Of a stretch of 61,524 nucleotides of DNA, positions 5,087 to 35,189 are shown one piece after another (the stretch's first letter is position 1; every line of letters begins with the position of its first letter). This stretch comes from Candidatus Altiarchaeota archaeon (GTDB lineage: Archaea; Altiarchaeota; Altiarchaeia; IMC4; JBDREA01). Where the stretch lies: the NCBI GenBank assembly GCA_043820265.1, contig JBDREA010000097.1:1-61524 (forward strand), read 5' to 3'. The translations under genes were made by a program, and so were the position numbers. The notes below the pieces were generated by a model, which was given only the letters and a program-made list of their open reading frames with translations, ran no database searches and had not been told where the DNA came from.

Positions 5087-5446
5087 ATGTACCATAAAGA
5101 CAAGACAAAAGCCCACAAAAAGAGGAAATACGCCCAAGGCAGGTTTTCAACCGAGACTACTGTTGGAAAAAACCAGATAAAAAAGGTCAAAGTCAAAGGT
5201 GGCGGGGAGAAGACAAAGCTAGCCTCAGCTGAAAAATGCAATGTCCTCCTCGACGGAAAGCACATTGTATGCGAAATCATCACAGTAACAGACAATCCAG
5301 CTTCAAGGGACTACACCCGCCGAAACATAATAACTAAAGGGGCGCACCTGAATGTGAAAACCCCGGCCGGAAAAGAGGTTGAAGTGGCAGTCACCTCAAG
5401 ACCAGGCCAGGTGGGGACAGTGAACGCCGTTGTAAAATCCGCTTGA
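5087..5446 (+). CDS. rps8e: 30S ribosomal protein S8e
   Basis: The basic N-terminus KAHKKRKYAQGR...KVKVKGGGEKTKL...NPASRDYTRRNIITKGA is typical of archaeal/eukaryotic S8e. Confidence 0.9.
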   Translation: MYHKDKTKAHKKRKYAQGRFSTETTVGKNQIKKVKVKGGGEKTKLASAEKCNVLLDGKHIVCEIITVTDNPASRDYTRRNIITKGAHLNVKTPAGKEVEVAVTSRPGQVGTVNAVVKSA

Positions 5447-5536: not shown

Positions 5537-7180
5537 ATGGAATTCAAAGAAAAAGCTGAAAAACTAATTGAAACCCATAAAAACGTAAAGGATAATCTTA
5601 GCCGAAAAGAACTTATCAAAGCTTGTGTCGAAAACAGGGAAGCAATTGTAGCTGCAAACGGCGCGCTTACAACCTGGACGCCTACTAATTCAACCGGTAG
5701 GAGCCCAAAGGATACATACCTGGTGAAGCGTCCGGAAAGCCAAGACACAATCGACTGGAACAGCCCCAACAACATCCCACTCTCACCAGAAACCTTTGAT
5801 ATGGTTGTCGAAGATGCGTTAGCTACTCTATCAAAAAAAGAAAAAATATATGTAACCGACCGCGTCCTCGGAGCCGACTCCTCCTACGCCCTCCCCGTAA
5901 AGACAATCACAGACAAAGCAATAATCTCACTTTTCACTGACAACATGTTCAGAGCCACACCAAAAGATATTGAAAAGAGCGTCTTTGCAGACAAACCTTT
6001 CATACTCATTGTAGTCCCAAATGACAAACTTGACCCGAAAAAATACACTGGTCTTCTACGAGTCCGGTCTACGGGAAATACTTCGCGAATGGCGATCGTG
6101 GCAGATATCGACAAACGTATCGGAGTAGTCTACGGTAGCTTTTATTGCGGATCCGTGAAAAAACTCATGTTCACCGTTATGAACTACGTGCTCCCGGGTG
6201 TTGGCATCCTACCTTTGCATTGCAGCGCAAATGAAGGAAAGGAAGGCGATACAGCACTTTTACTCGGACTTTCTGGCACTGGAAAAACCACTCTTTCCGC
6301 CGATCCTAATAGGGCATTGCTAGGGGACGACGAACACGGTTGGGATGAAAATGGAATAGCAAACTTTGAAAATGGATGCTACGCCAAACTCATCAACCTT
6401 CGAAAAGAGAAGGAACCAGAGATCTTTAATGCATGTTTCAAAAAAGAAGACTACTTAGATCACGGAGCAATAATCGAAAACTGTATGATGTATCCAGACG
6501 GCACATTCGACGTCGACGACGAAAGGCTTACGCCCAATAGCCGAGGTTCATATCCCCTTTCCTCTCTTAAAAACATTAAGACCCCCCCTGTGGGTGGCCA
6601 CCCAAAAACGATTCTCTTCCTCACAGCCGATGCAAATGGTGTGCTACCCCCGGTCTCAAAACTCACAGCCGAGCAGGCGATGCTCTGGTTTTTGATGGGA
6701 TACACTAGTAAGCTCGCAGGCACCGAACGCGGAGTCACCGACCCTGTGTCGACATTCAGCCGGTTCTTCGGCTCACCTTTCATGCCCAGAAACCCGGACG
6801 TCTACGCCAAGCTCCTCGGCGAAAAGATGAAAAAGCACGGGGCAACCGTCTATCTCGTAAACACTGGCTGGAGCGGCGGACCCTTCGGCGAAGGCGAGAG
6901 AATGGACATCATGCTCACCCGCGCAATCGTAGACGCATGCTTATCGGGAAAGCTTGAAGATGTCGAATACGAGGAAGACCCCCTCTTTCACATACTGGTT
7001 CCAAAATCGTGCCCAGGCGTAGCCTCAGATGTTCTGCATCCAAAAAACACCTGGAAGGACAAACAAGCTTATGACAAACGCGCCGAAAAACTCGCCAAAG
7101 ACTTCTGCGAGCATTTCCAAAAAGCCTACGGCAAAAAAAACATAGACGTCAACGTAGCCCAGATGTGCCCTGGAATCTAA
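5537..7180 (+). CDS. pckA: phosphoenolpyruvate carboxykinase (ATP)
   Basis: 547 aa. Kinase-1a P-loop LGLSGTGKTTLS, plus GDDEHGW and NTGWSGGPFG motifs characteristic of ATP-dependent PEPCK. Confidence 0.95.
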   Translation: MEFKEKAEKLIETHKNVKDNLSRKELIKACVENREAIVAANGALTTWTPTNSTGRSPKDTYLVKRPESQDTIDWNSPNNIPLSPETFDMVVEDALATLSKKEKIYVTDRVLGADSSYALPVKTITDKAIISLFTDNMFRATPKDIEKSVFADKPFILIVVPNDKLDPKKYTGLLRVRSTGNTSRMAIVADIDKRIGVVYGSFYCGSVKKLMFTVMNYVLPGVGILPLHCSANEGKEGDTALLLGLSGTGKTTLSADPNRALLGDDEHGWDENGIANFENGCYAKLINLRKEKEPEIFNACFKKEDYLDHGAIIENCMMYPDGTFDVDDERLTPNSRGSYPLSSLKNIKTPPVGGHPKTILFLTADANGVLPPVSKLTAEQAMLWFLMGYTSKLAGTERGVTDPVSTFSRFFGSPFMPRNPDVYAKLLGEKMKKHGATVYLVNTGWSGGPFGEGERMDIMLTRAIVDACLSGKLEDVEYEEDPLFHILVPKSCPGVASDVLHPKNTWKDKQAYDKRAEKLAKDFCEHFQKAYGKKNIDVNVAQMCPGI

Positions 7181-7191
7181 TAAAAAAGAAA

Positions 7192-7380
7192 ATGCCTGTA
7201 ATAGAAGTAAAACTCTGGGACGGCCGCACACCCGAACAAAAGGAAAAAGTCATCGCAGTCGTCACCGACGCCATCTGCGAATCGATTGGATGCCCCCGCG
7301 AACACGTCCACGTCATCATCCACGACGTGAAAAAAGAGAATTGGGGGATAGGCGGAAAACAAGCAAGCAAAATCCAATAA
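7192..7380 (+). CDS. 4-oxalocrotonate tautomerase family enzyme
   Basis: MPVIEVKLWDGRTPEQKEKVIAVVTDAICESIGCPREHVHVIIHDVKKENWGIGG. Catalytic Pro-1 after Met and about 62 aa, a classic 4-OT monomer. The start was moved from the track's 7165 to 7192. Confidence 0.85.
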   Translation: MPVIEVKLWDGRTPEQKEKVIAVVTDAICESIGCPREHVHVIIHDVKKENWGIGGKQASKIQ

Positions 7381-7433
7381 ACCACCACCTTAAACGCACT
7401 ATTTATCCTAGTTCTTCCCTGATAATTAATGCT

Positions 7434-10400
7434 ATGGCGAGGGGAAAGGTGGTATCTGGGGGCCAAAGACTAGTTCAAAAACCCCCAATATTAGATTTTA
7501 CTGAACTTGATTCACTTCTTAAGACCGCGGGACCTCAAGTCCAAGAAAATGTTTCTGGCTGGATAGATTTTCTAGAGGTAGGAGGCTACCAAGGTAGCAG
7601 ATTGTCCAGATCGATCGGGAGGGCTCTATCCTCCTACGATCAATTTTATATGGCCCACTTTCTCTCAAAAATGGGTTTTGGAGCTCCGAGAATTGCACCT
7701 ATTGTAGGATTACGGAAGGCGGATAGTGTTAGCCAATATTTAGAAAGGGAAATTCCTCTAAAGTATTCGGGTGCATCTATCGCAAGAGGTGAGAGTAATA
7801 GGGATGCTGCTCCCATACCATTCGTTGAGTCAGAGGAATTTGCTTATCTTCTAGGAGCATATTTAGGTCAGAAAAATAGACCAGGAAATCCTCGGTGCAT
7901 CTCCTTCGTTTCTGATTCGGCCAAAGTGTTGCATAGGATTTCCAGTACATGCAGGCATTTATTTGATGATAACCGAGAAGAACCAGTCGAACCTGTTACA
8001 TCTGATGATGGAAAACCGACTGGTTTTCATAGATTTTTCTACTATTCTAACGAATTGACACAATACCTCAGAAGCATAACTGATGGTAAAAAACGTCTTC
8101 CATGGGAGCATCTTCAGTCCAAAGCAGAAAAGATCGCGTTCCTGCAAGGATTCTTTGATGTTTCAGGTCACGTTTATACTGGAAAACATGCAAAAACAGA
8201 CAGACCACTCACCGTAGGACTCCGTAGTGAAAAACCTAATAGTCAAATACCGATGCTAGAGGATGTTCAAGCGTTATTATACGATTTAGACATATTTTCT
8301 CTTGTCGCCCCCTACCCAAACGATCGTTGTCGGTTGAAGATTGGTCTAAGAGAGGATGCTAAACGACTTGTTGATATAGGGGTTTTTACGGATGTAGAAA
8401 GGTTAGGGAAGTTACAGGTTGCGATTTCTGCGGGGGAAGAAGCTCCCTCAATTATAGGGATTCACTTGATGGATACCCTACGGAAAAAACGCGGTATTGC
8501 GCTCAAAGAGAAAATGGCATCTCGCCCCGATCACAGATCGATTGGATTTTTCCACAGAAACGTAGCTCCAATACCTGCACTAGCTCAGAGGGCAGCCAAG
8601 ATAGATTTAGATGAACTTAAGAGGAGATATATTGTTCTTGGAGGAGCAATGGGTATTGTTGAGCTTCGTTTGAATCCACAGTTGATTCTTCTTTCCCCTC
8701 AGGAATTCGAGCAGAGGTTTGGGGAAGAAGTGGAAATAAAGGCGAAAGCAGAGGAGAAAATAACTCCAATAATACAATCGGGTTCACCAGCAACTGAAGC
8801 CATGAAAGCTCTTGAGCTTTTATCTGAGTACCGTGCTGAAGGCAAAAGCCTTGAAAATGGCAGCGAAGACGAAAAAACACTTTTTACTGGCCTTCGAAGC
8901 CTTAATCCAGAAACACACCAGGGTGAATGGGGACGCCTTCTGAACTTCCTAGCTCATCAAAAACAGGGATTGGTTAAACGAACTTCTAAGGCATTCAAGA
9001 ATACTGGAATAGAAGAAGATGATCTAATCCAAATGGGAAATGTTGGATTAACCAGGGCATTATTGAAATACACTCCAGGGAGCGGAGCGTCATTTGACTC
9101 ATATGCGCATTGGTTCATCTATGGCGGCGTCATTGATGAATTAAGGATAACTGGGCGTTCCTCTGATCCAGTTAAGCTATCCAGGAAGCTGTTTAAGGAT
9201 ATGGGTAAGGTGGATACTGCAATCAGTCAACTCGAGCAGGAGTCGGGTGTGTATCCGACAACTGAAAAGATCGCACAGAGAGCAGGATTAAATCCTGATA
9301 AAGTGATGGAAATCAAACAACTTTGGACCACAGACCTTGAACTTGACAGGCTTGTAGACGATGGAGAACATGAGAGTACTCGCCAACTACCTGCCCTTGA
9401 TGGCCTAGCTGATTTCCGGACTCCGGATCGAGTAACAGAGACCAGGGAGAAAATGCAGATTCTTCAAGCACAGATAGCCGATCTTCCAGCCGAAGAAGGT
9501 TTTGTATTGAAGTTGAGAGAAGGTATCGGCACAAAAAATCACAGAAAGTACACAAACGATGAGATAGGTTCTGCATTAGGGGTTGATGATACTCGAGTCT
9601 CCCAGATCTATTCAAACGCTATTGATAAGCTAAAGAAAATCAATTATTCTTCTCGGGAAGCTCGCCAAGCCAAAGTTAGTAACTCTGATGTCGTCCTCTT
9701 CGAGGAGCTTGGCTGGACTCCCAGGAAACCTTTTTTCGACAGCCTTTGTCATGTACCTCATGATTGGCTGAGAGAAGCGATCACTGACATCCGCAAAAAT
9801 AATATTACGTTACCACCAAACATAGCTAAGGTTTTATTTATCCTGTTTCCTCTTGATCCAGTTCAGGAACAAACCAAGGACTTCCCACCTGAAATCATTT
9901 CTAATCTGCCTCGAAGTGAAAGAGTCATCTATAAACTACGCAATGGGATTGGAACTGAAAATGGATGGCGTTATTCGGCTGAAGGCATCGGCCTTATGTT
10001 CGGATTCTCCCCTGATCGTGTTAGAGACATGGAAAGGAAGGCTCTGACTACTCTTGAGGCACGAAAGGTAGATGCTAATACTGTAAGATCCGGAAGACGG
10101 TTGAAGCCCAATTATGCTCACATGGATAATGCAGACGTTTTTATCGCTGAACAGCTACATATCACATTTCAGGATCCAAGATTCACAGAGCTTGAGGAAC
10201 TCGGGGAGAAACTTCTTCGAGGAGAAGTTGCTAGACTTCATGATAAGAGGATCTCCTCAACTTCAGATATGATTGACCTACTCTTAAAGCATCCTCAAAT
10301 ACATCGAAACCGAGATTATAAGGCGAGAGTAGTGTCTCTAATCCCATTAAAGCAAGGACTTATATGGAAGCTTATGAATGGAATCGGGACTAGTGGGGGG

Positions 10401-10487
10401 AGATACACTCTAAGCAGATTAGTAAATGAGTTCAACCTTTCTCCAGGTTACGTAACACCTATGCTACAAAAAGCAGAAAAAACCTAG
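7434..10487 (+). CDS. LAGLIDADG-like domain / sigma-70-like (regions 2, 3, 4) fusion protein with two additional region-4-like HTH modules
   Basis: LAGLIDADG-like motifs FAYLLGAYLGQ (about 7839) and IAFLQGFFDVSGHV (about 8132). Sigma region 2 is DDLIQMGNVGLTRALLKYTPGSGASFDSYAHWFIYGGVIDELRI (about 8925-9155). Region 3 is about 9175-9325. Region 4 is FVLKLREGIG...YTNDEIGSALGVDDTRVSQIYSNAIDKLKK (about 9436-9640). Extra region-4 copies lie at about 9906-10062 and about 10341-10484. Start set at ATG 7434; the track start at 7290 overlaps the tautomerase gene. Confidence 0.8.
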   Translation: MARGKVVSGGQRLVQKPPILDFTELDSLLKTAGPQVQENVSGWIDFLEVGGYQGSRLSRSIGRALSSYDQFYMAHFLSKMGFGAPRIAPIVGLRKADSVSQYLEREIPLKYSGASIARGESNRDAAPIPFVESEEFAYLLGAYLGQKNRPGNPRCISFVSDSAKVLHRISSTCRHLFDDNREEPVEPVTSDDGKPTGFHRFFYYSNELTQYLRSITDGKKRLPWEHLQSKAEKIAFLQGFFDVSGHVYTGKHAKTDRPLTVGLRSEKPNSQIPMLEDVQALLYDLDIFSLVAPYPNDRCRLKIGLREDAKRLVDIGVFTDVERLGKLQVAISAGEEAPSIIGIHLMDTLRKKRGIALKEKMASRPDHRSIGFFHRNVAPIPALAQRAAKIDLDELKRRYIVLGGAMGIVELRLNPQLILLSPQEFEQRFGEEVEIKAKAEEKITPIIQSGSPATEAMKALELLSEYRAEGKSLENGSEDEKTLFTGLRSLNPETHQGEWGRLLNFLAHQKQGLVKRTSKAFKNTGIEEDDLIQMGNVGLTRALLKYTPGSGASFDSYAHWFIYGGVIDELRITGRSSDPVKLSRKLFKDMGKVDTAISQLEQESGVYPTTEKIAQRAGLNPDKVMEIKQLWTTDLELDRLVDDGEHESTRQLPALDGLADFRTPDRVTETREKMQILQAQIADLPAEEGFVLKLREGIGTKNHRKYTNDEIGSALGVDDTRVSQIYSNAIDKLKKINYSSREARQAKVSNSDVVLFEELGWTPRKPFFDSLCHVPHDWLREAITDIRKNNITLPPNIAKVLFILFPLDPVQEQTKDFPPEIISNLPRSERVIYKLRNGIGTENGWRYSAEGIGLMFGFSPDRVRDMERKALTTLEARKVDANTVRSGRRLKPNYAHMDNADVFIAEQLHITFQDPRFTELEELGEKLLRGEVARLHDKRISSTSDMIDLLLKHPQIHRNRDYKARVVSLIPLKQGLIWKLMNGIGTSGGRYTLSRLVNEFNLSPGYVTPMLQKAEKT

Positions 10488-10764
10488 CTGAACACCTACG
10501 TATTAAAACACCAGTAGGTGACTTAGCAACCAACAATAGCGACGTTTGCGCCGTAGAAGAACTTAGACTAAAACCAAGCGATCCTCGGATTAAACCTTTA
10601 TCTACTCTACCCGAGGCTACTATGCGAAAAAAAATAGCCGAACTTCGGAACCAAAAAAAATCCAATCCAGAAATCATTTCAGAGCTTGTTGCACTCGCTA
10701 CTTGGGATCAGAATTGTTTTTAAGAACTCTCTTTTTTCTAAGCGATCAAGATAACTGATTATAT

Positions 10765-11244
10765 TCATCTTTCTTTCAGCACGACTGACGTTTCCACTTG
10801 TCTTTCTGGTATCTTCCAGTATTTTCTTAGTAGCCTTTCTTTTTCACTGTGGGATACGACTTTGAATCCGTGTTTTTCGTAGAATTTTATCGCCCAAGAT
10901 GCGTCAGCCCAGGTTCCGATCAGGAGAGGTTTGTTCGTTTTTTTTCTGAGGTGGGTGAGCAACTCACTTCCTATTCCTCTTTTTTGTTTTTCCTTTAGGA
11001 CGTAAGCGTGTCGAATTAATGTGATGTCTTTAAGTTCCTGGATGCCCATCACACCCACAAGAACTCCATTATCCTCTGATCCCCAAAACACAACGCCAGC
11101 ATCGATCTCTCCTCGCAATTCTTCTTTAGGCATATATGGTTCATGCCAGCAGTCAGCGGGGATGACGCACTTGTAAGCGAAGGCTGCCTCATTTATTATC
11201 TCAAAGACAGCATCGAAGTCGTCGGAAGTGCATTGGGTGATCAT
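10765..11244 (-). CDS. GNAT-family N-acetyltransferase
   Basis: Acetyl-CoA binding motif KEKQKRGIGSELLTHL, then a C-terminal ...AIKFYEKHGFKVV. 159 aa. Confidence 0.85.
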   Translation of the reverse strand: MITQCTSDDFDAVFEIINEAAFAYKCVIPADCWHEPYMPKEELRGEIDAGVVFWGSEDNGVLVGVMGIQELKDITLIRHAYVLKEKQKRGIGSELLTHLRKKTNKPLLIGTWADASWAIKFYEKHGFKVVSHSEKERLLRKYWKIPERQVETSVVLKER

Positions 11245-11250
11245 GTTTCC

Positions 11251-11856
11251 TCAAGTTTCCACTTTTTTATAGTAGCATCTTTCATTGGTTTTTGGGACCT
11301 TGCTTTTTTCTGGAACCTCGCATTTGGATCCCCACTCATACACCTTCCAGTTGGTACCCGGGACCTGGTTGCACTCCTCTTCTATGAGTCCTTCGTTTTT
11401 TGATTTCCACAATCCCCTCAACTTTTCGCAGTAGTCTTTTTGGGAGATGCATCCTTCAACTTCGTCGAAGATTAGGTGGCCAAGGGTCTTTCTGTCATAG
11501 GATTCATGGTATTTACAGTTGCAATTTTCCTTGAAGATCCAATCTCCGCCGGTGTCCCTGCAAAGCAAGACTGATTTTTTGACCTTCTCGATTTCAGCCC
11601 TCCTCTTGTTTATCATATCTGAGTACTTGGGGTCGATAGTTGAGCAGCCGTTGAACTGGATGTCCTCACAAAAATCGCAGCTTGGACCGTAAGCAGATTG
11701 ACAAATCTCTTTTAAAAAGCATTCTGTTTCGTCAAGATTGGAACAATCGTCTTTATGGATTAGAGCGGTGTTTTTTTCGATGCAACCCGACATGAGAATT
11801 ACTATAAGAAGCACTCCGATGCAGATAACTAATATGGGCTTTTTTTCCTTGGCCAC
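11251..11856 (-). CDS. Cys-rich secreted lipoprotein-like protein
   Basis: N-terminal signal with lipobox-like LMSGC, followed by a domain of about 170 aa with many Cys residues. No family recognised. Confidence 0.55.
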   Translation of the reverse strand: MAKEKKPILVICIGVLLIVILMSGCIEKNTALIHKDDCSNLDETECFLKEICQSAYGPSCDFCEDIQFNGCSTIDPKYSDMINKRRAEIEKVKKSVLLCRDTGGDWIFKENCNCKYHESYDRKTLGHLIFDEVEGCISQKDYCEKLRGLWKSKNEGLIEEECNQVPGTNWKVYEWGSKCEVPEKSKVPKTNERCYYKKVET

Positions 11857-11861
11857 TTTCC

Positions 11862-13367
11862 CTATTCAGTGACTTCTTTCAGTATTACTCCGCCTACTCG
11901 AACTGGATTCAATTCTTTATTGAATCGGATTGCTTCGGTTAGCTTGTGTTCGTTTTCAGAGTAGATGGTGAAGAGGGGTTGGTTTTCTTCTACTTCGTCT
12001 CCGACTCTGACGTGAAGGTAGACTCCTGCGCCCTGGTCTTTGGGTGCTCCTGCGTTTCTTGCCACCTTTGATATCTTCTTGTTGTCGATGTGTCTTACGG
12101 TACCTTTTATCGGGGACTTGATGATGTGTGTTTTGTCTCCGATTGGTATGTCTTCAGCGGTCACTTGTGGGTCTCCGCCTTGGGCAGCGATTATTTCCTT
12201 CATCTTCTCGTAGGCTTTACCGGATTTAAGGATCTCTTCGGCCATCTTTCGGCCCTCCTTTTTCGGCACCTTGCCTGATAGCTCAAAGAGTATTCCTGCG
12301 AGGTCAAGAGACTTGTTTATCAAATCGACCGGCCCTTTGTTTTGAAGGGCCAAAAGCACATCTCGCGCTTCGAGGGCTGGGCCGATCCCCGAACCGATTG
12401 GCGCGCTTCCGTCGGTTATCAGGCATTCCACGGACATATCCAGCCTTTTACCTAACTCGATGAATTTGTGGGCTAGGGAAGTTGCTTCTGTCATGTCTGC
12501 GATCTTTGCCCCCTCGCCTACGGGGATGTCTATGACGACGTAGTCTGATCCGACGCTCTTCTTTTTTGCCATCACAGATGCGAGGACCTGTCCTTCGGGG
12601 TCGATCGACAAAGGATATTCTACTTGAATAATTCTGTCGTCTGCGGGCGCCAGATTGACTGCTCCCCCCCAGATAATGCAGCCGTTTGTTTTTTTCACTA
12701 TTTTTCTCAGCTCGTCGATTGAGAATTCGACGGGTGCCAGGACCTCCATTGTGTCTGATGTGCCTGCTGGTGACGTGATCGCTCTTGAGCTGGTCTTCGG
12801 CATCGTGTATCCAGCAGCGGCAAGTATTGGAACCACTATCATTGTCGTACGGTTTCCCGCCACTCCTCCGATACAGTGTTTGTCGACGATATCGGTTCCG
12901 AAGTCTATCTGTTGTCCAGTCTCGACCATGGCTTTGGTCAAAGCCACGGTTTCGTCCATGTCGTAGCCGTTTATGAAAGCCGAGGTTATGTAGGCTGTCA
13001 GCTCCACATCGCTTAGGTTGTTGTCGACGACGTCTTGGATTATCGTTCTGATCTCACTGGATTCGAGCTTTTTCCCCTCCATTTTTTTCCGAATGTATCT
13101 TATGGATTGGGGTTGGTTTGTAACGGTTATATCGACTTCGTCTCCTTCCTTTACATTCAACGCTTTTATCAGGTCCTCAAAGAGAGCTATTTCTCCTTCT
13201 TCGACGAACGTTGTGGTCGAGTCTGTTATGGCTGTGGCAATCGATTTTCCTGCATTGATCTTGATCCTGTCCGATACGTGTATTCCGAGCTCCTTCATGT
13301 CCTCTAAGCTCAAGACAGCAACTAGCTTTCCGGTCTCAACTGCAATGACTTTTACCTTACGTTTCAT
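11862..13367 (-). CDS. AMP phosphorylase / thymidine phosphorylase family protein (archaeal long form)
   Basis: About 500 aa with an extra N-terminal domain, then glycosyltransferase family 3 motifs (DKHCIGGVAGNRTT, TSSRAITSPAGTSD) and a C-terminal PYNP domain. Start set at ATG 13367 (MKRKVKV). Confidence 0.9.
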   Translation of the reverse strand: MKRKVKVIAVETGKLVAVLSLEDMKELGIHVSDRIKINAGKSIATAITDSTTTFVEEGEIALFEDLIKALNVKEGDEVDITVTNQPQSIRYIRKKMEGKKLESSEIRTIIQDVVDNNLSDVELTAYITSAFINGYDMDETVALTKAMVETGQQIDFGTDIVDKHCIGGVAGNRTTMIVVPILAAAGYTMPKTSSRAITSPAGTSDTMEVLAPVEFSIDELRKIVKKTNGCIIWGGAVNLAPADDRIIQVEYPLSIDPEGQVLASVMAKKKSVGSDYVVIDIPVGEGAKIADMTEATSLAHKFIELGKRLDMSVECLITDGSAPIGSGIGPALEARDVLLALQNKGPVDLINKSLDLAGILFELSGKVPKKEGRKMAEEILKSGKAYEKMKEIIAAQGGDPQVTAEDIPIGDKTHIIKSPIKGTVRHIDNKKISKVARNAGAPKDQGAGVYLHVRVGDEVEENQPLFTIYSENEHKLTEAIRFNKELNPVRVGGVILKEVTE

Positions 13368-13434
13368 TTTATCGAAATCAAATTTATCCAATAATAAAGG
13401 GATGCCTGTACTACACATTCAGGTTTTATTTTTT

Positions 13435-14442
13435 TTAGTACTGCATCATTCCCCCTAGGAAGTAGTCTAAGATAAAGCCACCTAAAAAGAATAGGCTTAA
13501 GGCGATAATAACAAGTATTGGGAAGAATTTAAATCCGTCTCTTTCTTCACCTTTCATTATCAAGCCCATGACCATTGCACCGAAAAATGACGAGGCGATG
13601 AGGGAACCTATGGAGTACAACCTGATGAATTCCGGGGTTATCTGCATTTTTGTTATTGAGATCGGCATGGCTCCTGATCCTTCTCCTCCTGCGGGCATGT
13701 CAGCAGCGATTGTGTTCATCATGCCCCCCATCAGGTTCACGAGGAAGGATGACATGGCATAAAGCGCCGGGGCTCCAATGCCAATCGCTATGAAGATGAA
13801 GAACACATACATCAGTACGGATGCGGAGATCTCTTTTTGGATCATTTGTTGATCTCTTAGGTCGTCTGCGGTCTGGTCGAGGAGATCAGCCAGTTTTCCG
13901 CCTGAATTGATGCTTTGGATTATGAGGTCCATGGTTCGCTCGAGGTTCGTTGATCTAACGTTTTTTCCGGTTTTTTGCAGTGCTTCGGTCAAGCTTCTAC
14001 CAGCCATTGCCTCTTTTCCTATTCTTTTTATCTCCAAGCTGAAGTAACCGAATTCTGGCCTTGCCGCAAGAAGAAGTGCTTTGTCTGTCGTCAGTCCTGC
14101 TCTGATGTTTGAGCTCATCAGTTGCAGGGCGTCTGGCAGGGCAGTTTCGACTTCTCTGGCCTTGGAGTCGGCAGATAATAGCACAAGCATGTAGATGAGT
14201 CCTTCGAACAATACGAAAAAGACGAGGATTCCGATCAATAGATTGATTGGTCCCCAAATGTTGATGAGGTCATAGGCTTCAATAAGGGATCCCATTATGA
14301 ATCCGAAAAATAATCCTAAAAGAAGCATTGAACCCATGAATGTGTCTGGGGGGGTTTGAATCCTAGAGAACCTCAGTAACTGGCGGTACTTTATTCTTGT
14401 ACCGCGGGGGAGAACCTTCACGATTGGATTGAATACATTCAT
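13435..14442 (-). CDS. type II secretion system F-domain membrane protein (TadC/PilC-like)
   Basis: 335 aa. Cytoplasmic helical T2SS-F domain (ALPDALQLMSSNIRAGLTTDKALLLA) flanked by TM segments. Adjacent to a second T2SS-F gene and the ATPase. Confidence 0.85.
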   Translation of the reverse strand: MNVFNPIVKVLPRGTRIKYRQLLRFSRIQTPPDTFMGSMLLLGLFFGFIMGSLIEAYDLINIWGPINLLIGILVFFVLFEGLIYMLVLLSADSKAREVETALPDALQLMSSNIRAGLTTDKALLLAARPEFGYFSLEIKRIGKEAMAGRSLTEALQKTGKNVRSTNLERTMDLIIQSINSGGKLADLLDQTADDLRDQQMIQKEISASVLMYVFFIFIAIGIGAPALYAMSSFLVNLMGGMMNTIAADMPAGGEGSGAMPISITKMQITPEFIRLYSIGSLIASSFFGAMVMGLIMKGEERDGFKFFPILVIIALSLFFLGGFILDYFLGGMMQY

Positions 14443-14449
14443 CTTTTTT

Positions 14450-15355
14450 TTAGTTACCTATTAGATTTGGTCTTTTGGATTTTATTATTCCCATGAATAT
14501 GAATTGCATGATGGCTGTTCCTCCAAAGAGCATGTAGTATGTCTGCTCTCTTCCAATGGCTTCCATTCCTGGGAAAGTTGAGAGGATGATGAGCATTGTT
14601 ATCCCAAGTGACGGCAGGATAACTGCAACCATCATATACATCATCGCTAGGGGATTGAGTATGCTCTTGTATCTCCTTATCTCGATTAGCTGTTCTTTGG
14701 AGAGGCTTGATATGACGTTTGCGATGTTGTCTCCGACGTCTGATCCGCTTTTTAGGCTGTTTACGAGCTGCCAGATTGCGCGTCTAAAATAAAGCGAGGG
14801 ATTCCTGTTGGCGAGTTCCTCGAGAGCGTTGACTACTGGTTCGCCGGCATTGACCTTTTCTATTACTGTTTTGAATTCCCCTGTTATTGGTCCGTAGTCT
14901 CCTGTCGAAAGAGATGCTAGGGAATTGAAGACTGGTACGCCTGATCTAATCTGTACTAACACGGTTCTTAATGCGAATAGCAGGTTTCTTTCAAGATATT
15001 TTACTCTTTTATTGACAAGGGATTTTGGATACATCAAAAGGTAGGCGAACATCCCGAATCCCACTATTCCTCCGAAGATGGGTCCTATGACGGGGTGTTC
15101 TCCCCCACCAACTAAGATGACGTAATATATGGGTATCGTGACCAGTATGAACATGAATATCCCCATGAAAAAGGCTATTGCAATGTAATCCCTGGAATTT
15201 ATCTTGTATTCGTCTGTGAGGCCTGATTGTTTTAGAAGGGAGTCTACGTTGGGAAAGAGCCTGAGAAAAAATGACCCTATTCCCCTGAATATATGGGATG
15301 CCGAGCGAATGCCCGGTGAGGCTAGGAATTTAAGCTTCTGTTTTCTTTCTATCAT
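14450..15355 (-). CDS. type II secretion system F-domain membrane protein (TadB/PilC-like)
   Basis: 301 aa with the T2SS-F pattern (NLLFALRTVLVQIRSGVPVFNSLASL...). Its start overlaps the ATPase gene end by 26 nt. Confidence 0.85.
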   Translation of the reverse strand: MIERKQKLKFLASPGIRSASHIFRGIGSFFLRLFPNVDSLLKQSGLTDEYKINSRDYIAIAFFMGIFMFILVTIPIYYVILVGGGEHPVIGPIFGGIVGFGMFAYLLMYPKSLVNKRVKYLERNLLFALRTVLVQIRSGVPVFNSLASLSTGDYGPITGEFKTVIEKVNAGEPVVNALEELANRNPSLYFRRAIWQLVNSLKSGSDVGDNIANVISSLSKEQLIEIRRYKSILNPLAMMYMMVAVILPSLGITMLIILSTFPGMEAIGREQTYYMLFGGTAIMQFIFMGIIKSKRPNLIGN

Positions 15356-17186
15356 CTTCTATTAGCTCTAACATATATTTTGGGTCTTTGTTTTCGTTTA
15401 CTGTGTCAAGGACGGTTTGTCGGTCGAGGTAGTATCTGCTGAGTATTTTTCCGACTTCGTCTATGCACCTGATGTTTCTGTCGACCATGTAGTTTAGGAT
15501 TTTTTTCTTCATCTCTATCTCTTCTCTGATTTCCTGCTGGTTGAGGCCGGTATGTCTTTCGAGTTCCGCAAATAGGTGTGTTGGTTCGTTCACCTTATCT
15601 ATGGTGTCGGTTCTGGCATTCCATGCGTACATCACGTTGGCCTTATATTTTATCCTGCCTTCTTTTTCCATATGTTCCTCATCCATTATAAATTCGCCGA
15701 CTTCGTAGGTCCTCCTTATCCCCCGTCTTCGGTCTCGGAACATTACCACGTTTAAGTGGACGGAGTCGAGCATGCTGTGCGGTATCTCGATTGGCGGATT
15801 GGTGAATCTTGTAATGGTCTGTGCGCATGTGTCTGCGTGAAGGGTTCCATATACACTGTGTCCTGTATGCATGGCTTCGAACAATACTTCGGCTTCTCTT
15901 TTTTTTCGGATCTCTCCCATAATGATCCTGTCGGGACGCATTCTTAGGCAGTTTATGAGGAGGTCGAGCATGGAGACCTCTCCTTTTCCTTCAGGATTTG
16001 GTTCTCTTGTGGTAAGCGGGCACCAGTATAGGAAGTCTGGAAGCTGCAGCTCTCGGGTGTCCTCAATTGATATGATTCTGTTGTTGGGGGGCATGAAGGG
16101 CATGCAGATATTTAGGAAACTTGTTTTTCCACTTCCTGTGCCTCCCGATAAGATCATGTTCATCTCGTATTGGATAACCAACCAGATCAAAGCGAGGGTC
16201 TCATCTGATGCTGTGTGGTTCTTGATGAAGTCTGTGCATGTCCATGGATCGCGCGCGAATTTCCTTATCGTCACAGTGTTGCCTTTGCTGGAGATGGGTG
16301 ATAGGATTGCATTGGCCCGGTCCTTGCTCATCAAATGGGCGTCAAGTAGCGGATTTAATGTTGAGATTTCTCGCCCGATCCTTCTAGCAATTGTTGATGC
16401 ATAATTGGCTATCTGGCTTTCGCTTACGAGATTCACGTTTGTTAAAAGCCAGCCGAATTTTTTTTGGTACACTCTCACCGGTTCCTTTGCCGAGTTTATG
16501 ACTATCTCTTCGAGGTTTGGGTCGTCTAAGAAGAACTCTATCTCTCCAAGGCCCAGTAGTTCGTGCACGAGGTTTAAGATGAAGTGGTCTTTTACATCGT
16601 CTTTGAGGTGAGGCAGTTCGCTTTTTATCAGTTCTTCAGCGCTTTTTTTGAATTCGTCCTTTAAAGCTAGTAGAAGTTTTGGATCGAGTATGTCACTTGT
16701 AGTCATCTCTACCGACGTGATCAGTCTTTCCTTGATGTCGTCTAGGAGGCCTGCGGTTGCGATGCCGACTTCCGGCAATACCAGCTTATATTTTGGGGTG
16801 TATCCTTCCTGCACTATTCTTACTCCAGTAGTTACTCCTTCGCATTGGATGTCGTATTCGTCGAGTATCTTCTCTTTTTTCTTCTTTGGTTTGTCAAAGG
16901 TGAGTTCCTCTTCTATTTTAACCTTCACTCCACCAGGACTTGGTATGCTTTCCTTTTTTTCTGATTCGGTTTTCTCTTTCTCCTCAGTGGATTTGGGCTG
17001 CTCTGATTCTTCTTTTTTGTCTTTTTGCTTTTGATCTTGTTGCTCAGGGGATCTTTCTTGTTGCTGTCCTTTATCTGATCGTTTCTCATCTGGTTTTTGT
17101 TCTCCCTGGTTTAAGCCTTCCTGGTTTTGGGTCTGCCCACCTTCGCCTTCATTGGGATTATTATCTGTTTTCTGGTCTCCTTCCAT
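15330..17186 (-). CDS. type II/IV secretion ATPase (GspE/VirB11/FlaI-PilB family) with low-complexity N-terminal extension
   Basis: Walker A LSGGTGSGKTSFLN, Asp box IISIEDTRELQL, Walker B/His box RPDRIIMGEIR...GHSVYGTLHA. The first 110 aa or so are K/E/Q-rich low complexity. Confidence 0.9.
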   Translation of the reverse strand: MEGDQKTDNNPNEGEGGQTQNQEGLNQGEQKPDEKRSDKGQQQERSPEQQDQKQKDKKEESEQPKSTEEKEKTESEKKESIPSPGGVKVKIEEELTFDKPKKKKEKILDEYDIQCEGVTTGVRIVQEGYTPKYKLVLPEVGIATAGLLDDIKERLITSVEMTTSDILDPKLLLALKDEFKKSAEELIKSELPHLKDDVKDHFILNLVHELLGLGEIEFFLDDPNLEEIVINSAKEPVRVYQKKFGWLLTNVNLVSESQIANYASTIARRIGREISTLNPLLDAHLMSKDRANAILSPISSKGNTVTIRKFARDPWTCTDFIKNHTASDETLALIWLVIQYEMNMILSGGTGSGKTSFLNICMPFMPPNNRIISIEDTRELQLPDFLYWCPLTTREPNPEGKGEVSMLDLLINCLRMRPDRIIMGEIRKKREAEVLFEAMHTGHSVYGTLHADTCAQTITRFTNPPIEIPHSMLDSVHLNVVMFRDRRRGIRRTYEVGEFIMDEEHMEKEGRIKYKANVMYAWNARTDTIDKVNEPTHLFAELERHTGLNQQEIREEIEMKKKILNYMVDRNIRCIDEVGKILSRYYLDRQTVLDTVNENKDPKYMLELIEDDRKKTEA

Positions 17187-17222
17187 ATTGTCTACCTATT
17201 TGCCTAATAGCACATATAATAG

Positions 17223-18359
17223 CTATTCTTTTCCTTCCTTGGAGATAATCTTAATAACTGGCTCCCCGATCGTTGGGTAGTGTAGCTCTAAGAGGTTGTG
17301 TTCTTCGAGGATCATGGCCCATTCCTCGATTTGGGTTTTGCTGACCCTCAACGCCCTCGCCAGCCTGTCATCTACCTTCAAGGTCTTGTATTTTTGGACG
17401 AGCTCATAAAGCCTGTCTATGCTTGTTTCGACCTTTTCTCCCGCCTCAAAGGATTTGACCTTGATTTTGGGTTCTTCTTCGGGTTTTTTTATCACGGTAA
17501 CGATCCTTTTTCTTTGGATCTCTTCCATGCGCTCCCGTTTTCGGCTGCTCATACCCTTGACTGTGCCGGTTACTGCGGCCATCATCCCCTGCTGTGGCTG
17601 ATTTAGTCTGTGCTGCTGGGCTGCAAGAGCGTTTGCAGCCATATCTGGGGCTGGGTTGCTGATTACAGCGTCAAGGCGGCCTTTCTGGATTTCTTTTGCT
17701 CGCTCGGCTTTTTTCATCTCTTCTTGGCTTGGCATGTTTCCCCCAAAACCTGCTACGTGGGGCATCTTGTCACTTATCCCTGCACCGTCTGGGTGGGGTG
17801 AGGGTCCTTTTCTGATTTCACTTAGCCTATCCCCTCTTAAAGGTTTTGGACTTGTGTGACTTGATCCAAATATGCTGGTTATTCTTCCCAGGCCGAACAT
17901 CCTGGAGTGTCGTACGTTCTTTTCCTGGCTTGCGGCTCCTAGCGGCTGGGGTTGGATTTTTGATATTGTTTCTTTTGGTTTAATGGATTTTATCTTTACT
18001 CCGATTTCGCTGAGCTTTAGGATTGAAGATGCCAGGGCTTCTTGATTATCATCTAAGGAGGTCTTCATATCCTGTTCGTCGAATCGATAGATGTCCAGTC
18101 TTCCTGCCGACCCGGCCATGTGTTCTCTGATACTTGCGAGCGCGTCGTCTCCGAGCAGGACTTTTTTGCCCCCCAACGCCTCAAAGGATGCTCCTCTTAT
18201 GTCTCCGTTTTCGATTAGGATGTCTGCTTGATAGAGGACTTTTTCTACTATCCCCATCAGCCTCATGCATCCTGTGAAGTTAACATCGAGTTCCTTACAG
18301 ACCTGGTAGAAGTCTTTTGTGTTTCTGGGTGTTATGTGGTGGCCTTTGAGGAGATTCAT
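17223..18359 (-). CDS. pilus-locus accessory protein with C-terminal winged-helix-like domain
   Basis: Hypothetical. The C-terminus SIDRLYELVQKYKTLKVDDRLARALRVSKTQIEEWAMILEEHNLLELHYP looks like a wHTH. Directly upstream of the ATPase on the same strand. Start set at ATG 18359. Confidence 0.55.
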   Translation of the reverse strand: MNLLKGHHITPRNTKDFYQVCKELDVNFTGCMRLMGIVEKVLYQADILIENGDIRGASFEALGGKKVLLGDDALASIREHMAGSAGRLDIYRFDEQDMKTSLDDNQEALASSILKLSEIGVKIKSIKPKETISKIQPQPLGAASQEKNVRHSRMFGLGRITSIFGSSHTSPKPLRGDRLSEIRKGPSPHPDGAGISDKMPHVAGFGGNMPSQEEMKKAERAKEIQKGRLDAVISNPAPDMAANALAAQQHRLNQPQQGMMAAVTGTVKGMSSRKRERMEEIQRKRIVTVIKKPEEEPKIKVKSFEAGEKVETSIDRLYELVQKYKTLKVDDRLARALRVSKTQIEEWAMILEEHNLLELHYPTIGEPVIKIISKEGKE

Positions 18360-18527
18360 GGTCTTGGGGTTAGAATAAAAGATATTATAACGAATTGCAT
18401 AAATAAATGAACATTTGGAGTTATGCAATTCGATATATTCGATTGCATAAGTAATCCTTATAAAGTTCAAAAACTTATGTAATCGACTATACTTTCAGAC
18501 ATTAAAAAAAAAGATTTTTTTTTAGAT

Positions 18528-20933: not shown

Positions 20934-20938
20934 TTTTT

Positions 20939-23900
20939 TTATCGCCAGATTGTCAGGTCCGCTTGTATCGGACCCCAAAGAGATCTGACCTCACCTGTCT
21001 TTGAGAAGTCGACTATCAATTGTCCTGCTGCGAACTCTAACCCGAGCATTCCGTCATCGTCTATGTCCAGTTGGCTTAGAAGCCTATATACTGCGTCATC
21101 GACGGCGTCGTTCGTATCATAGCACGCCGAAGTGGAACAGATAGAAGTGTAGTTGCATTCGTTTGTCCCGTTGTAGTTCGAGGGAAAGTCGATTCTTGTG
21201 TCGCTTCCGTCCTCGAATTCTATGTTCCATGTGCAGCCCTCCTTGTCCTGGAACACCCCGCCGTAGTCTACGCTGCCTCTTAGTCTCACAGTGTATATCG
21301 CCCTGCTGTATTCAGAACAGAACGTTGGCGTGCTTGGGTCGTTTCCTGTTCCGATTGTGAATGAATTGTTTTCTCCGTTTTTTATAAGGGAAGCTGGGAC
21401 CTGTATGAAGTATGGGTCGCCTAGAATCGTGTAGTCTCCCCCGAAGTGGCTGTCGCGTAAGGTGTAGATGTCATAGCTTCCTGCGCTGTTGTTTAGGCTT
21501 AGGTAGTCTGTCCAGTACTCTCCGGAATATGAAGTTATCTTTACGTCGACAACTGTCAAGTTATCCCTTACACTCAGCTTACCCTCGCATCCACCGAATG
21601 TCGGCGTATCGAGGTTTATCGAAATCTCTCCGTAGTCTGGGGGATTGATGCTTGGATCATAGGTGAACTCGATGTATGAGTCGTTGTAGAGGATTCCCCT
21701 GAAAATATCCCCTTCGGTCACATTAATAGCCTGCCCTCTGTAGCTGGCATTCACAAGGTCTTGGGCTATCTCTCTGTAGATAGTCGCAAGTTCTGATGCA
21801 TTGGTGCTCATGTAGAAGTGGCTGCAGTTGTCAATGCAGGCTGTGTCGTTCATGTTGTCTGCGCAGGTTGAAGCGTCTCCATAAAGAACAGTATACAACG
21901 CAATGCCATACGTGTCGTATGCTATTGTCGCTTCGTCTAAGACTTCCTGCTTTGCCGTAGCGTCACTGCAGCTGACGCCTGGAATACATCTGTTAGCGCA
22001 TCCGTCGCTCATAATAATTATGGCCTTCAATCGGTCGATAGTGTTTATTATTTCTAGATCAAATGCAGCACTTGAGGTGTCGTCATTGTGGACTATCACA
22101 CCTAAAACATTATCTCCATCGGCCACATCATTATTGTTAATAACTATTCCGTCTCTATCCCAGTATGATCCAGAATGCTCGGTAGAATCGTTATCTATGA
22201 GCACCCCGTTAAGATAAACTTCGGCTTTGTCGTCTGATAGCACAAACAATTTCGTGATGTTTAGGGTCGACTTGTTCACAGTAAACGTCTTCCTGAAGTG
22301 GTAGTCTCCGCTGGCGGCGATTGTGGGTATGAGCTCTAAACTCACGTTTGTAAAGTAGGCTATTATGCCCTCACTGTCAGATTGGGATCCTGTAGTAGCA
22401 TCAAACTTTACTCCGAAATCCAAGTAATACCACCCTGCACCTCCAGAAGATATGATGGTAGACACATTTTGCCTGAATCTTCCGCTGTTATTGATTCCAT
22501 TACCATCCATGTCGAAGTCCCCGTAGACTTCATCTTCATCCCATTCTATGTTGTCGGTAATGCTATGGTCATAGAGTACTTCAAGAGTTGTATCAGTCGG
22601 AGCATCACCGTTTCCATTGCCTGTATCAAGGTCGTATCCAAGGTAGTTGTTGCTTAGGTCCGGGTCTCCGAGCTGGAAGAATCTTGACTTAATCCATACC
22701 GACTCCTCCGTATCGTCACTCGATGATGTGTCAAATGCTTCATAGTCAAATGACACAAAGACTTCTGCTCCAGCAGCAATTGCATCCACAACTGCTTGTG
22801 TGATGTTTATCTGAACCCCCCAGGCACCGCTGTCGGCTACCTCATCTGTGCGGCCCTCTATTCTAACCTCGAGCCGGCTGCTTCCATCTTGAGTTGTGCC
22901 GCCAGAAAGACCTGATGGATCATAGTGGCTGGTCATATCAGAATTACCTGGTATTCCTCCAGGTCCTAATGTTCCGTATGCGTCATCTCCCCTAAACCAG
23001 TCCCATCCGTCATCGTAGTTTGCAAAGTCTATGCTCATGATTATCTCAGTGTTTGCTGTGCTGTTTAAGCCGCTTGTGAAATCCACAGGAGACGGTATAT
23101 CTTGGGCCATATCCCAGAGGTCGGCGTCAAGTGCACCAGCCCCCTCCCCGACCTTTAATTGTATGTTATCAAAATATGCCGCCAGACCTTCTCTATTACT
23201 TCTCCCATTGCTCCATGGCCCCCTGAAGTCGACCTTCGCCCCAAGAGCCAAGTAGTACGCACCCGGACCTGAGATATAAGGTGAAACATTCTGCCAGAAA
23301 TTCCCTGATACTAGGCTGTTCCACCCGTTACTGTCATCGTCGACTGATCCCCAGATCTCATTTGATGCGTCACTGTATCTGTGGCCTGAATCCAGGTCTG
23401 AACCCAGCCAGTACGTATCGGTTGTGTCACTGAAGCGTGCTTTTATCCAAGCACCTTCCTCAAGGTCATCGTCGGCATCGTCTGCCCCCCACCAAAAGGA
23501 GAGGTTTGTTGTGGCTCCTGCATTAATCTGGACCCACATAGCGTCTGTTATGTTGAACTCTATCCCCCAGGCACCACTGTCTGAGATGTCGTCTAGGTTG
23601 TTCCCGCTGGGTCCCACAACAACTGCAATGTACTTTCGACTTCCTGGTCCATCATATCGCTGAATTTGGGTTGAAGTGTCGGTGTCGTAGTCGCTTTTTC
23701 CGGACGGATCGCCGTGCTCGCAGTGGTCGCTTGTCGCATCTCCCACGAAGTCTCTCCACCAGTCCCATCCGTCATTGCTATCGCCACCGTTTGAAAAGGT
23801 GTTGTCTAGGCTGTTCACGCCGTCCGTGAAGTCCACGTTCTTCGAGCAACCACCCGCAGTGTTCCAGATGTCCAAATACGTTGTATGCACGTTCGTACTC

Positions 23901-25531: not shown

Positions 25532-25692
25532 TTTACCTCTCAGAGACGGTCGGACTGTAAACTAATTGCAGGCGGCGTATTAAAATGTTGAATTCTGGGT
25601 GTATATAGTTGTCGATTTCAAGCACTCAAAGTATTTAAATCTGTCGATTCCTGAACTGCTCCATGAAAAATTGTTTAAGTAGGGGTGAAGCT

Positions 25693-28332: not shown

Positions 28333-28358
28333 ATATCCTATGATAAAATTATCACATC

Positions 28359-34060: not shown

Positions 34061-34085
34061 TAAGCGAAAAGAAATGGTAGACTAC

Positions 34086-34196: not shown

Positions 34197-34217
34197 GCTG
34201 ATTCGAGAATATATTTC

Positions 34218-35186: not shown

Positions 35187-35189
35187 GCG

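Follow-up and report, generated by a model that had tools for sequence, protein, structure and literature searches.

Sigma factors define transcription initiation in bacteria, and archaea use TBP, TFB and TFE. To our knowledge, no role of sigma factors is known for the archaeal RNA polymerase (RNAP). The gene analysed here lies at positions 7434-10487 (+) of a 61,524-nucleotide stretch of DNA, in the following called the window (contig JBDREA010000097.1 of GenBank assembly GCA_043820265.1, Candidatus Altiarchaeota archaeon). It encodes a fusion protein of 1017 amino acids (aa) in which a LAGLIDADG-type fold is joined to a sigma-70-type module. The closest described design is that of WhiA (DUF199/COG1481), a transcription factor of Gram-positive bacteria. 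In WhiA, a nuclease-dead LAGLIDADG domain acts as a scaffold that binds both WhiB and the beta-prime dock and is also in contact with the DNA backbone, and the helix-turn-helix (HTH) domain at the C-terminus mimics sigma domain 4 (sigma-4) on a -35-like GACAC motif (PMC10243135). A direct interaction of WhiA with the sigma factor WhiG is likewise described (PMC3240954), and WhiA acts in contact with sigma and RNAP (PMC10243135, PMC3240954). Sigma-70 genes (fam00359) have been reported on verified DPANN contigs, mainly of Woesearchaeota; their function is unknown and no anti-sigma factors were found (Castelle et al. 2021, PMC8204110). That report describes neither a LAGLIDADG fusion nor extra sigma-4 repeats, and the host of the fusion protein described here is related to Altiarchaeota. 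Regulators combining LAGLIDADG and sigma-type HTH domains are thus already known, as is sigma-70 in archaea; the layout presented here is rare. Our literature searches, which addressed archaeal sigma factors as well as LAGLIDADG-sigma fusions, yielded no description of such a fusion or of the family to which its N-terminal module (N-module) belongs. An initial annotation of the sequence had stated that no characterised protein with this combination was known, but WhiA has essentially this logic (PMC10243135, PMC3240954). The same annotation treated a sigma factor in an archaeon as an anomaly, which has to be softened in view of the DPANN genes (PMC8204110).

Our analysis somewhat favours a reading in which the fusion protein is a WhiA-like, sequence-specific multi-HTH DNA-binding regulator; as we infer, it would bind DNA, have a regulatory role and act without bacterial RNAP. 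Judged by its sequence, the gene has the appearance of an archaeal N-module to which a repeat-bearing sigma factor of bacterial type was joined. The N-terminal half is an archaeal module made of an HTH, a nuclease-dead double LAGLIDADG fold and a helical tail, a module that also occurs on its own in Altiarchaeota. The C-terminal half is of bacterial type and comprises sigma domains 2, 3 and 4 and, behind them, two more units of 'sigma-4 plus tail', as in a protein from Omnitrophota. The three sigma-4 HTHs, perhaps together with sigma-2/3 and the N-terminal HTH, might recognise a site of new specificity that is extended or repeated, and the dead endonuclease fold could act as a scaffold or clamp the DNA non-specifically. 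The protein would not be a classical initiation factor for bacterial RNAP, since such an enzyme is not expected in the cell. The initial annotation had offered a repurposed DNA binder and a partner of a non-canonical polymerase as alternatives, and our data lean towards the first.

The sigma module is colinear with known sigma factors. Sigma domain 2 (regions 2.1-2.4) is encoded at 8865-9152 (+; aa 478-573), sigma domain 3 at 9183-9329 (+; aa 584-632), a region-3.2-type linker that is predicted to be disordered at 9330-9422 (+; aa 633-663) and sigma domain 4 (regions 4.1-4.2) at 9423-9638 (+; aa 664-735). In Pfam searches, Sigma70_r2 matched aa 509-572 with 35.8 bits (cut-off 24) and Sigma70_r4 matched aa 682-735 with 35.7 bits (cut-off 24.1). 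The match of Sigma70_r3 to aa 591-630 scored 25.3 bits, exactly equal to its cut-off of 25.3. No Pfam match to sigma regions 1.1 and 1.2 was obtained in the fusion protein. The NCBIfam model of the sigma-70 superfamily (TIGR02937) was matched with 78.7 bits (cut-off 42.9), and all sigma equivalog models stayed far under threshold, for example RpoD_Cterm with 111 bits versus 354. In a phmmer comparison with PDB sequences, aa ~500-735 and SigA/RpoD aligned colinearly across regions 2.1-4.2 (E 7e-19). In the AlphaFold model of aa 470-1017, built from a 73-row alignment, the predicted local distance difference test (pLDDT) score is 94-96 for sigma domain 2, 94-97 for domain 3 and 94-98 for domain 4; it falls below 50 in the linker, which aligns to the sigma 3.2 linker. 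With this model, the top 50 structures listed by Foldseek are all sigma chains (SigA, RpoD, SigmaS; E to 3.8e-10), nearly all of them from RNAP holoenzyme or initiation complexes. By sequence and fold, the fusion protein belongs to the sigma-70 superfamily and lies outside every named sigma equivalog.

The residues with which sigma factors read promoters were then compared in a residue table. The numbering is that of E. coli sigma-70; the equivalences in regions 2 and 4 agree with the HMMER alignment to SigA. Replacements were found among the residues reading the -10/-12 positions (R436Y, Q437G, T440I and R441D), the extended -10 element (H455K and E458K) and the -35 element (R554E, R584D, E585T and R588S). 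None of the promoter-reading residues tested (Q437/T440/R441, H455/E458 and R584/E585/R588) is kept in the fusion protein, which has G, I, D, K, K, D, T and S at these positions. By this comparison, with ten key residues substituted, nearly all base-reading residues for the -10 and -35 elements are lost.

The N-terminal half starts with a helical region that contains an HTH (7608-7751, +; aa 59-106; core aa 81-104, GFGAPRIAPIVGLRKADSVSQYLE), recognised from the family alignment and from the helices of the model. In the alignment, this HTH is present in every family member, and the corresponding region of the family profile gave weak PDB matches to transposase-, ParB- and Cro-type HTHs. Two LAGLIDADG half-domains follow, which were delimited by alignment, model and Foldseek. 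Half-domain 1 (7833-8081, +; aa 134-216) carries motif 1, SEEFAYLLGAYLGQKN, at 7830-7877, and half-domain 2 (8121-8375, +; aa 230-314) carries motif 2, LPWEHL..EKIAFLQGFFDVSGHV, at 8097-8174. The alignments and the model place a helical region behind this core (8394-8636, +; aa 321-401), with a PD..IG...RN......LA.R.A motif that is common to all N-modules. In Pfam, LAGLIDADG_3 reached 14.8-18.5 bits, under its cut-off of 22.5, with a weak match at aa 233-291. The AlphaFold model of aa 58-404 (pLDDT 74.8; predicted template modelling score 0.72) contains two consecutive alpha-bb-alpha-bb-alpha units, and all 50 of its 50 best PDB matches in Foldseek are LAGLIDADG proteins. For aa 134-314, the best structural matches are I-DmoI (E 1.2e-5) and I-Tsp061I (target template modelling (TM) score 0.68), over a range of E 1.2e-5 to 1.7e-5 and target TM 0.62-0.68; intein endonucleases are also matched. 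WhiA is among the top PDB matches of the N-module, with the entries 3hyi/3hyj and the RNAP-bound entries 8dy7/8dy9, in which WhiA is part of a Streptomyces open complex with RNAP, sigmaA and WhiB (E 1.5e-5, target TM 0.63-0.66). At the level of the predicted structure, a double LAGLIDADG fold in aa 134-314 is thus confirmed, with the sequence models sub-threshold.

At the position of the catalytic, metal-binding acid, motif 1 of the fusion protein (LLGAYLGQK) has Q and motif 2 (FLQGFFDVSG) has S. The acid of both motifs is replaced in six of six family modules, by Q, A or T in motif 1 and by S, C or G in motif 2. Going by these motifs, the nuclease is dead, because the acid is replaced in both of them in the fusion protein and in all relatives; the fold itself is present. 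One could still think of an active homing endonuclease or mobile element, free-standing or intein-derived, in which the HTHs are incidental. The structural matches to I-DmoI, I-Tsp061I and intein endonucleases and the weak LAGLIDADG_3 match are in line with this idea, but we give it hardly any credence: apart from the missing acids, no Hint/intein family was detected in Pfam scans of the whole fusion protein and its pieces, the viral contig collection yielded no relative, and the gene lies between intact genes with no evident flanking repeats or disrupted host gene. Unlike I-DmoI and I-Tsp061I, the fusion protein lacks the catalytic acids, is not encoded by an intron or intein and has the fold as part of a 1017-aa multidomain protein. 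The intein and active-nuclease identities were rejected on the basis of the Pfam scans and the missing acids.

Downstream of sigma domain 4, the protein continues with repeats. Self-comparison revealed two repeats of ~130 aa (aa 746-880 and 895-1017), each with a region-4-like HTH at its end; repeat 2 matches repeat 1 over 746-873/895-1017 with an E of about 1e-12. Tail 1 of the repeat unit (9639-9878, +; aa 736-815; ..SNSDVVLFEELGWTPRKPFFDSL..), defined by self-BLAST and alignments, is shared with the Omnitrophota protein P0004. It is followed by a second sigma-4-type HTH (9906-10067, +; aa 825-878) and by tail 2, which extends to aa 962. The second HTH is 37% identical to region 4 in self-BLAST (E 5.5e-9), and 49 of the 50 PDB matches that it gave on its own in phmmer are sigma region 4 (best E 6.5e-5, sigma-A region 4). 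The third sigma-4-type HTH (10341-10484, +; aa 970-1017) is more weakly supported, by self-BLAST against region 4 (E 0.002), by alignment and by pLDDT values of 50-87.

For these domains, much of the initial annotation held. It had proposed sigma-70 regions 2, 3 and 4, and the profile searches and AlphaFold/Foldseek comparisons that it suggested returned Pfam matches at or above the cut-offs, colinearity with SigA/RpoD and structural matches to sigma chains. Its complete sigma core stands, and the loss of most -10/-35-reading residues had been overlooked. The homing-endonuclease-type fold that it saw in the N-terminal half is supported by the model, whose PDB matches are all LAGLIDADG proteins, and falls below the cut-off in Pfam; the N-terminal HTH and the loss of both catalytic acids had escaped notice. 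Missing from its inventory were also the two extra sigma-4 domains and a third repeat tail that is out of frame (see below).

The likeness to WhiA is one of design and not of family membership. Both proteins combine a dead single-chain double LAGLIDADG fold with a sigma-4-type HTH. In Pfam, the fusion protein gave no match to the WhiA N-terminal, WhiA-type LAGLIDADG and WhiA HTH models at E-values up to 1-10, and no WhiA model is among the best 25 of the 53 NCBIfam families that it matched. Unlike WhiA, it has an archaeal host, an extra N-terminal HTH and a full set of sigma domains 2, 3 and 4 with two further sigma-4 domains, compared to the single HTH of WhiA. Since its LAGLIDADG part is, in the modelled structure, as close to the archaeal I-DmoI and I-Tsp061I as to WhiA, it was probably domesticated independently of that of WhiA. 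As another instance of WhiA's design, a dead LAGLIDADG fold with a sigma-4 HTH, that apparently arose independently, the fusion protein suggests an intrinsic functional logic of the pairing. Archaeal sigma modules joined to a domesticated endonuclease fold would also offer a handle on sigma domains outside the bacterial holoenzyme, be it in autonomous DNA recognition or in contact with archaeal RNAP. If the protein is only a WhiA-like repressor or activator, it would represent cross-domain domain shuffling in a poorly known lineage and no change of paradigm.

Compared to sigma-70 factors of groups 1-3 (RpoD/SigA, RpoS, FliA), the fusion protein shares the colinear regions 2.1-4.2 and the fold of holoenzyme sigma factors, and it largely keeps the region 2.2 helix and the melting aromatics. 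It differs from bacterial sigma-70 in its archaeal host, in the lack of detected regions 1.1/1.2, in ~470 aa of unrelated N-terminal domains and in ~280 aa of C-terminal repeats. Its best overall match is P0004 (MBF0486236.1; E 4e-36), a 3581-aa protein of a Candidatus Omnitrophota bacterium. Residues 478-925 of the fusion protein are colinear with two units of P0004 at 24-28% identity, so both proteins share a unit of 'sigma plus tail plus extra sigma-4'. Unlike the fusion protein, P0004 is without a LAGLIDADG module, concatenates several sigma units and has a C-terminal Pfam match to ASD1_dom. Two further bacterial sigma factors, P0050 and P0112, carry C-terminal sigma-4-like repeats that represent a looser version of the unit. 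The contigs of P0004 and of these repeat-bearing sigma factors are bacterial. P0004 is odd in itself: in this partial protein (L004 1-10747), there are several complete sigma-70 modules, and extra sigma-4-like repeats come after each of them. On the bacterial contig of P0112 (L056, with MraZ, RsmH and a PASTA-domain penicillin-binding protein), two sigma-70 genes are adjacent at 10001-14626, encoding 596 aa (P0112, with the repeats) and 930 aa, the latter with Pfam matches to sigma-70.

MzaA of the MZA anti-phage system was considered as well, since it is likewise a large protein with a C-terminal sigma-70 module, and it is the sole PADLOC match of the fusion protein (E 1e-17, aa 506-740). Membership in this defence system was rejected. 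Only the sigma part matches, with 84 bits in NCBIfam versus a cut-off of 800; the GNAT acetyltransferase, a 201-aa neighbour and the family relatives gave no Mza matches in PADLOC, and the Pfam/NCBIfam annotation of the neighbours shows no defence context.

Relatives of the fusion protein are very rare. The searches included an exhaustive phmmer search of 1.84 billion representatives and overall covered over 15 billion proteins as well as 241 million metagenome records and a viral collection. In all of these, only seven related loci were found, all of them singleton clusters. Four proteins of the phmmer search match the N-terminal part, among them P0007 (E 7e-20), P0040 (1.3e-17) and P0065 (4.4e-17), and a word-index search added P0154 (5e-15). 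The best full-length-type match among the representatives has 27% identity, and there is no close relative. Scanning the metagenomes with the core N-module alignment gave one new locus, L055, and a single-protein scan of the genome collection gave no relative. The word-index searches, which considered up to 8000 candidates per query and caught hardly any of so sparse a family, returned three bacterial sigma factors with the full-length protein, P0154 with the N-terminal 480 aa and nothing with a six-sequence N-module alignment. An exact-sequence look-up retrieved no record of the fusion protein or of the AMP phosphorylase encoded in the window, and neither the N-module nor the sigma module was found to have a paralogue in the window. 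In alignments, the N-module family is characterised by the HTH and by the motifs ES.EFAYLLGAYAA, RLPWEHL...EK.AFLQGFLD.SG and PD..VIG..RN......LAR.IA.

Two of the relatives, P0040 (MFC2162744.1, 'Candidatus Altiarchaeota archaeon') and P0154, are stand-alone N-modules. P0154 is encoded on L005/L006, together with UPF0147 and with a GatB that is 65% identical to that of the window. Three others combine N-module and sigma. P0007 (904 aa) lies on L001, and the 888-aa protein of L055 lies on an archaeal contig, as judged by dph5 (248.9 bits) and an archaeal phosphopantothenate synthetase (340 bits). P0065 (1548 aa, on L002) has two N-modules and a sigma module. L055 and P0007 share 50% identity in their sigma modules, but both modules are only 22% identical to that of the fusion protein; the value for P0065 is 24%. 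Each of the sigma modules in these fusions is 30-40% identical to ordinary bacterial sigma factors. In terms of sequence, the simplest reading would be that the N-module was fused to different sigma factors independently on at least three occasions, with a comparison set that is biased towards matches of the query, that is, of the fusion protein. Repeated independent fusion would speak for the N-module and sigma-type domains being functionally linked.

The members of the family vary in detail. About 100 extra residues (e.g. R.SLEVRLS..E...LG) are present at the N-termini of P0007, P0040 and P0154 and at 5293-5600 of L055, and are missing from the protein of the window. In most relatives, another HTH lies behind the LAGLIDADG core and ahead of the helical tail; the fusion protein does not have this second HTH. 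In P0065 (L002 856-5502), two HTH plus dead-LAGLIDADG modules are arranged in tandem, and its sigma part has no recorded Pfam match to regions 2/3, though a region-2-like stretch aligns. A gene for an IS91-type transposase lies near P0065 on L002. The neighbours of the stand-alone N-module genes were considered as partners carrying a split-off sigma module and were rejected: the 308-aa and 842-aa ORFs (open reading frames) of L005 and the 837-aa ORF of L003 showed no sigma motifs on reading and no Pfam match in the annotation.

Several findings weigh against a WhiA-like regulator that is independent of bacterial RNAP, and some of them would fit a genuine initiation factor. In region 2.2, the fusion protein keeps D403, Q406 and N409, which contact the beta-prime coiled-coil. 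It also keeps K418, F427, Y430 and W433, with W434F, so that the melting aromatics appear as Y430/W433/F434. The sigma modules of L055 and P0007 are near-canonical, which is not obviously expected for a mere array of HTHs; that of L055 retains R584, E585, R586, R588 and Q589 (VTRERIRQIE) and scores 193 bits with RpoD_Cterm. The lack of a bacterial-type RNAP in the cell is assumed from the window. The initial annotation had proposed to look for core subunits in the genome or bin, and in the 61.5 kb of the window no bacterial or phage RNAP subunit is encoded. The low GC content at third codon positions (GC3) and the out-of-frame last repeat tail, both described below, also count here, as the gene could be a decaying recent import.

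In a genuine initiation factor, the sigma module would bind RNAP and direct or assist promoter opening, and the N-module and extra sigma-4 domains would add promoter contacts. Possible polymerases are the archaeal RNAP, bound through the clamp coiled-coil that corresponds to the sigma region 2.2 site on beta-prime, and an enzyme of bacterial or phage type encoded elsewhere. The clamp coiled-coil is conserved between beta-prime and Rpo1N. The kept region 2.2 and melting residues, the nearly complete set of canonical residues in L055 and P0007 and the repeated fusion of the N-module to different sigma factors, which suggests selection for the sigma function itself, all speak for such a role, as does the fact that WhiA physically works on sigma and RNAP (PMC10243135; PMC3240954). 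We nevertheless consider it quite unlikely. The window encodes no bacterial or phage polymerase subunit, archaeal RNAP has no sigma role known to us, regions 1.1 and 1.2 were not detected and most base-reading residues of regions 2.4, 3.0 and 4.2 are lost in the fusion protein; moreover, the kept residues may be structural only. A broader version would be a sigma-dependent layer of initiation or promoter opening in archaea, which would act on archaeal RNAP via the clamp coiled-coil or on an unrecognised polymerase, would include the stand-alone N-module proteins and would use the dead LAGLIDADG fold as a platform positioning the sigma domains. We grant this a small chance, because the N-module was repeatedly fused to three unrelated sigma factors and the sigma modules of L055 and P0007 are near-canonical.

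The 3′ end of the gene bears on a different explanation. After the stop codon (TAG, 10485-10487), a shifted frame is open to 10723, in which the ~75-aa tail that trails each sigma-4 HTH is encoded for a third time (10488-10723, +; ..NNSDVCAVEELRLKPSDPRIKPL..). Its homology to tails 1 and 2 was seen by tblastn, with E 3e-7 and 6e-8 against the gap sequence and 2e-4 against the whole window. An A6 homopolymer lies just 5′ of the stop codon (10477-10482, +). One more A in this run would give a 1096-codon ORF, and the resulting 1096-aa protein would end at 10723 with three aligned 'sigma-4 plus tail' units; the 277-bp gap to the convergent GNAT gene would shrink to 41 bp. The tail is either a true frameshift remnant or a homopolymer error of assembly or sequencing. 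The composition of the gene is also atypical. Its GC3 is 0.359 compared to 0.499 +/- 0.065 in the window (z = -2.15, second lowest of 41 genes), and its distance in relative synonymous codon usage of 1.13 is high for its length. GC3 is even along the gene (N-terminal half 0.338, C-terminal half 0.375). With no internal seam, the gene was possibly imported as a complete unit, perhaps from another archaeon, or is weakly expressed. The L055 fusion gene has a GC3 of 0.596, which is typical of its host.

These features would suit a recent import by horizontal transfer, in which the fusion was formed elsewhere, has little or no present function and is decaying. The degenerate promoter-reading residues point the same way, as do the absence of a close relative among the 1.84 billion representatives and the AMP-phosphorylase loci retrieved, which carry neither the fusion gene nor the window neighbours. 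On the other hand, a stop-free ORF of 1017 codons is unlikely to last long without selection, and the fold-defining residues of six or seven domains are all kept, with confident models. The gene is tightly packed between its neighbours, has a TATA-like element at the right upstream distance and shares a nearby orthologous GNAT gene with the fusion locus of L055. Taken together, we regard a decaying import as unlikely.

The host is an archaeon related to Altiarchaeota, and the archaeal genome context described in the initial annotation was confirmed by markers on both sides of the gene. Ribosomal protein S8e is encoded 2 kb upstream at 5087-5446 (Pfam 88.8 bits; TIGR00307 86.3 bits, cut-off 78.25), and AMP phosphorylase at 11862-13418 (TIGR03327, 690 bits). 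The latter is 63-67% identical to proteins of metagenome-assembled genomes labelled Altiarchaeia/'Methanobacteriota'/'Euryarchaeota', 56-58% to those of Altiarchaeota and 30-33% to bacterial ones. Further archaeal markers of the window are a FlaI-like ATPase, T2SSF genes, DUF2226 and a four-subunit pyruvate:ferredoxin oxidoreductase. None of the AMP-phosphorylase loci from the genome collection contains the fusion gene or the window neighbours tested, which puts the host at a distance from all species representatives. Scans for tRNAs and Rfam families found none in the window, leaving it without an RNA-based taxonomic marker.

An assembly or binning artefact that joins a bacterial sigma gene to archaeal DNA might be suspected from the bacterial type of the sigma module and from a composition that departs from the window average. 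We consider this scarcely credible, given that archaeal markers flank the gene within 2 kb on both sides (S8e and AMP phosphorylase). A chimeric assembly at the fusion gene, which the initial annotation had named as a concern, is very unlikely because GC3 is even along the ORF, the N-module, which is part of this very ORF, is a member of a family associated with Altiarchaeota and the same in-frame layout of N-module and sigma occurs on contigs from independent samples (L001, L002 and the archaeal L055).

The immediate neighbours of the fusion gene are a tautomerase gene (5′) and a GNAT gene (3′), and translation and annotation bore out the ORF of 1017 aa between them as initially described. 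The ATG at 7434 is a sensible start. An alternative ATG upstream at 7290 is an unlikely start because the extension would overlap the tautomerase gene (7165-7380) in a different frame. A TATA-box-like element, TATTTAT, was read directly from the sequence at 7399-7405 (+), ~30 nt 5′ of the ATG, and may be an archaeal promoter giving a near-leaderless mRNA. Bacterial sigma-70-type promoters are not enriched around the gene, with 7 found in 7000-11400 versus 7.0 expected by chance. Directly upstream, 5537-7380 (+) encodes an ATP-type phosphoenolpyruvate carboxykinase (557 bits) and the tautomerase, which is of the 4-oxalocrotonate-tautomerase family. The carboxykinase gene overlaps the listed start of the tautomerase ORF by 16 bp (7165-7180); the Pfam match of the tautomerase begins at residue 11, so its true start may be further downstream.

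The GNAT acetyltransferase gene (10765-11244, -) is convergent with the fusion gene and was identified by annotation and by comparison with L055. Its orthologue in L055 (10340-10816, -; 56% identity) lies 2.4 kb downstream of the fusion gene and is the sole other gene common to both loci. On L002, a different, unrelated GNAT gene (282-800, -) lies directly upstream of the fusion gene. A linkage of GNAT and fusion genes is possible, though three loci are too few to speak of an operon-like association.

Other gene groups of the window were also noted. At 32687-36659, genes for GatB, a UPF0020 methyltransferase and an Mrr_cat restriction-type protein are grouped. The same three gene types occur on L005 (3180-7185 and 14698-16068), which carries P0154; the GatB is 65% and the methyltransferase 46% identical to that of the window, and the two organisms are probably related. 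A same-strand cluster at 13435-29129 (-) contains two T2SSF genes, the FlaI-like ATPase, DUF2226, proteins of 816, 1530 and 879 aa with hints of Big_7/VWA domains and a CARDB protein. Its appearance is that of an archaeal adhesion or type-IV-pilus locus encoding giant surface proteins. Finally, 43442-49839 (+) holds a MoxR (AAA_3) - DUF58 - BatA/VWA - VWA cluster with DUF7408/DUF7406, an operon of the Bat-like 'aerotolerance' type on an archaeal contig.

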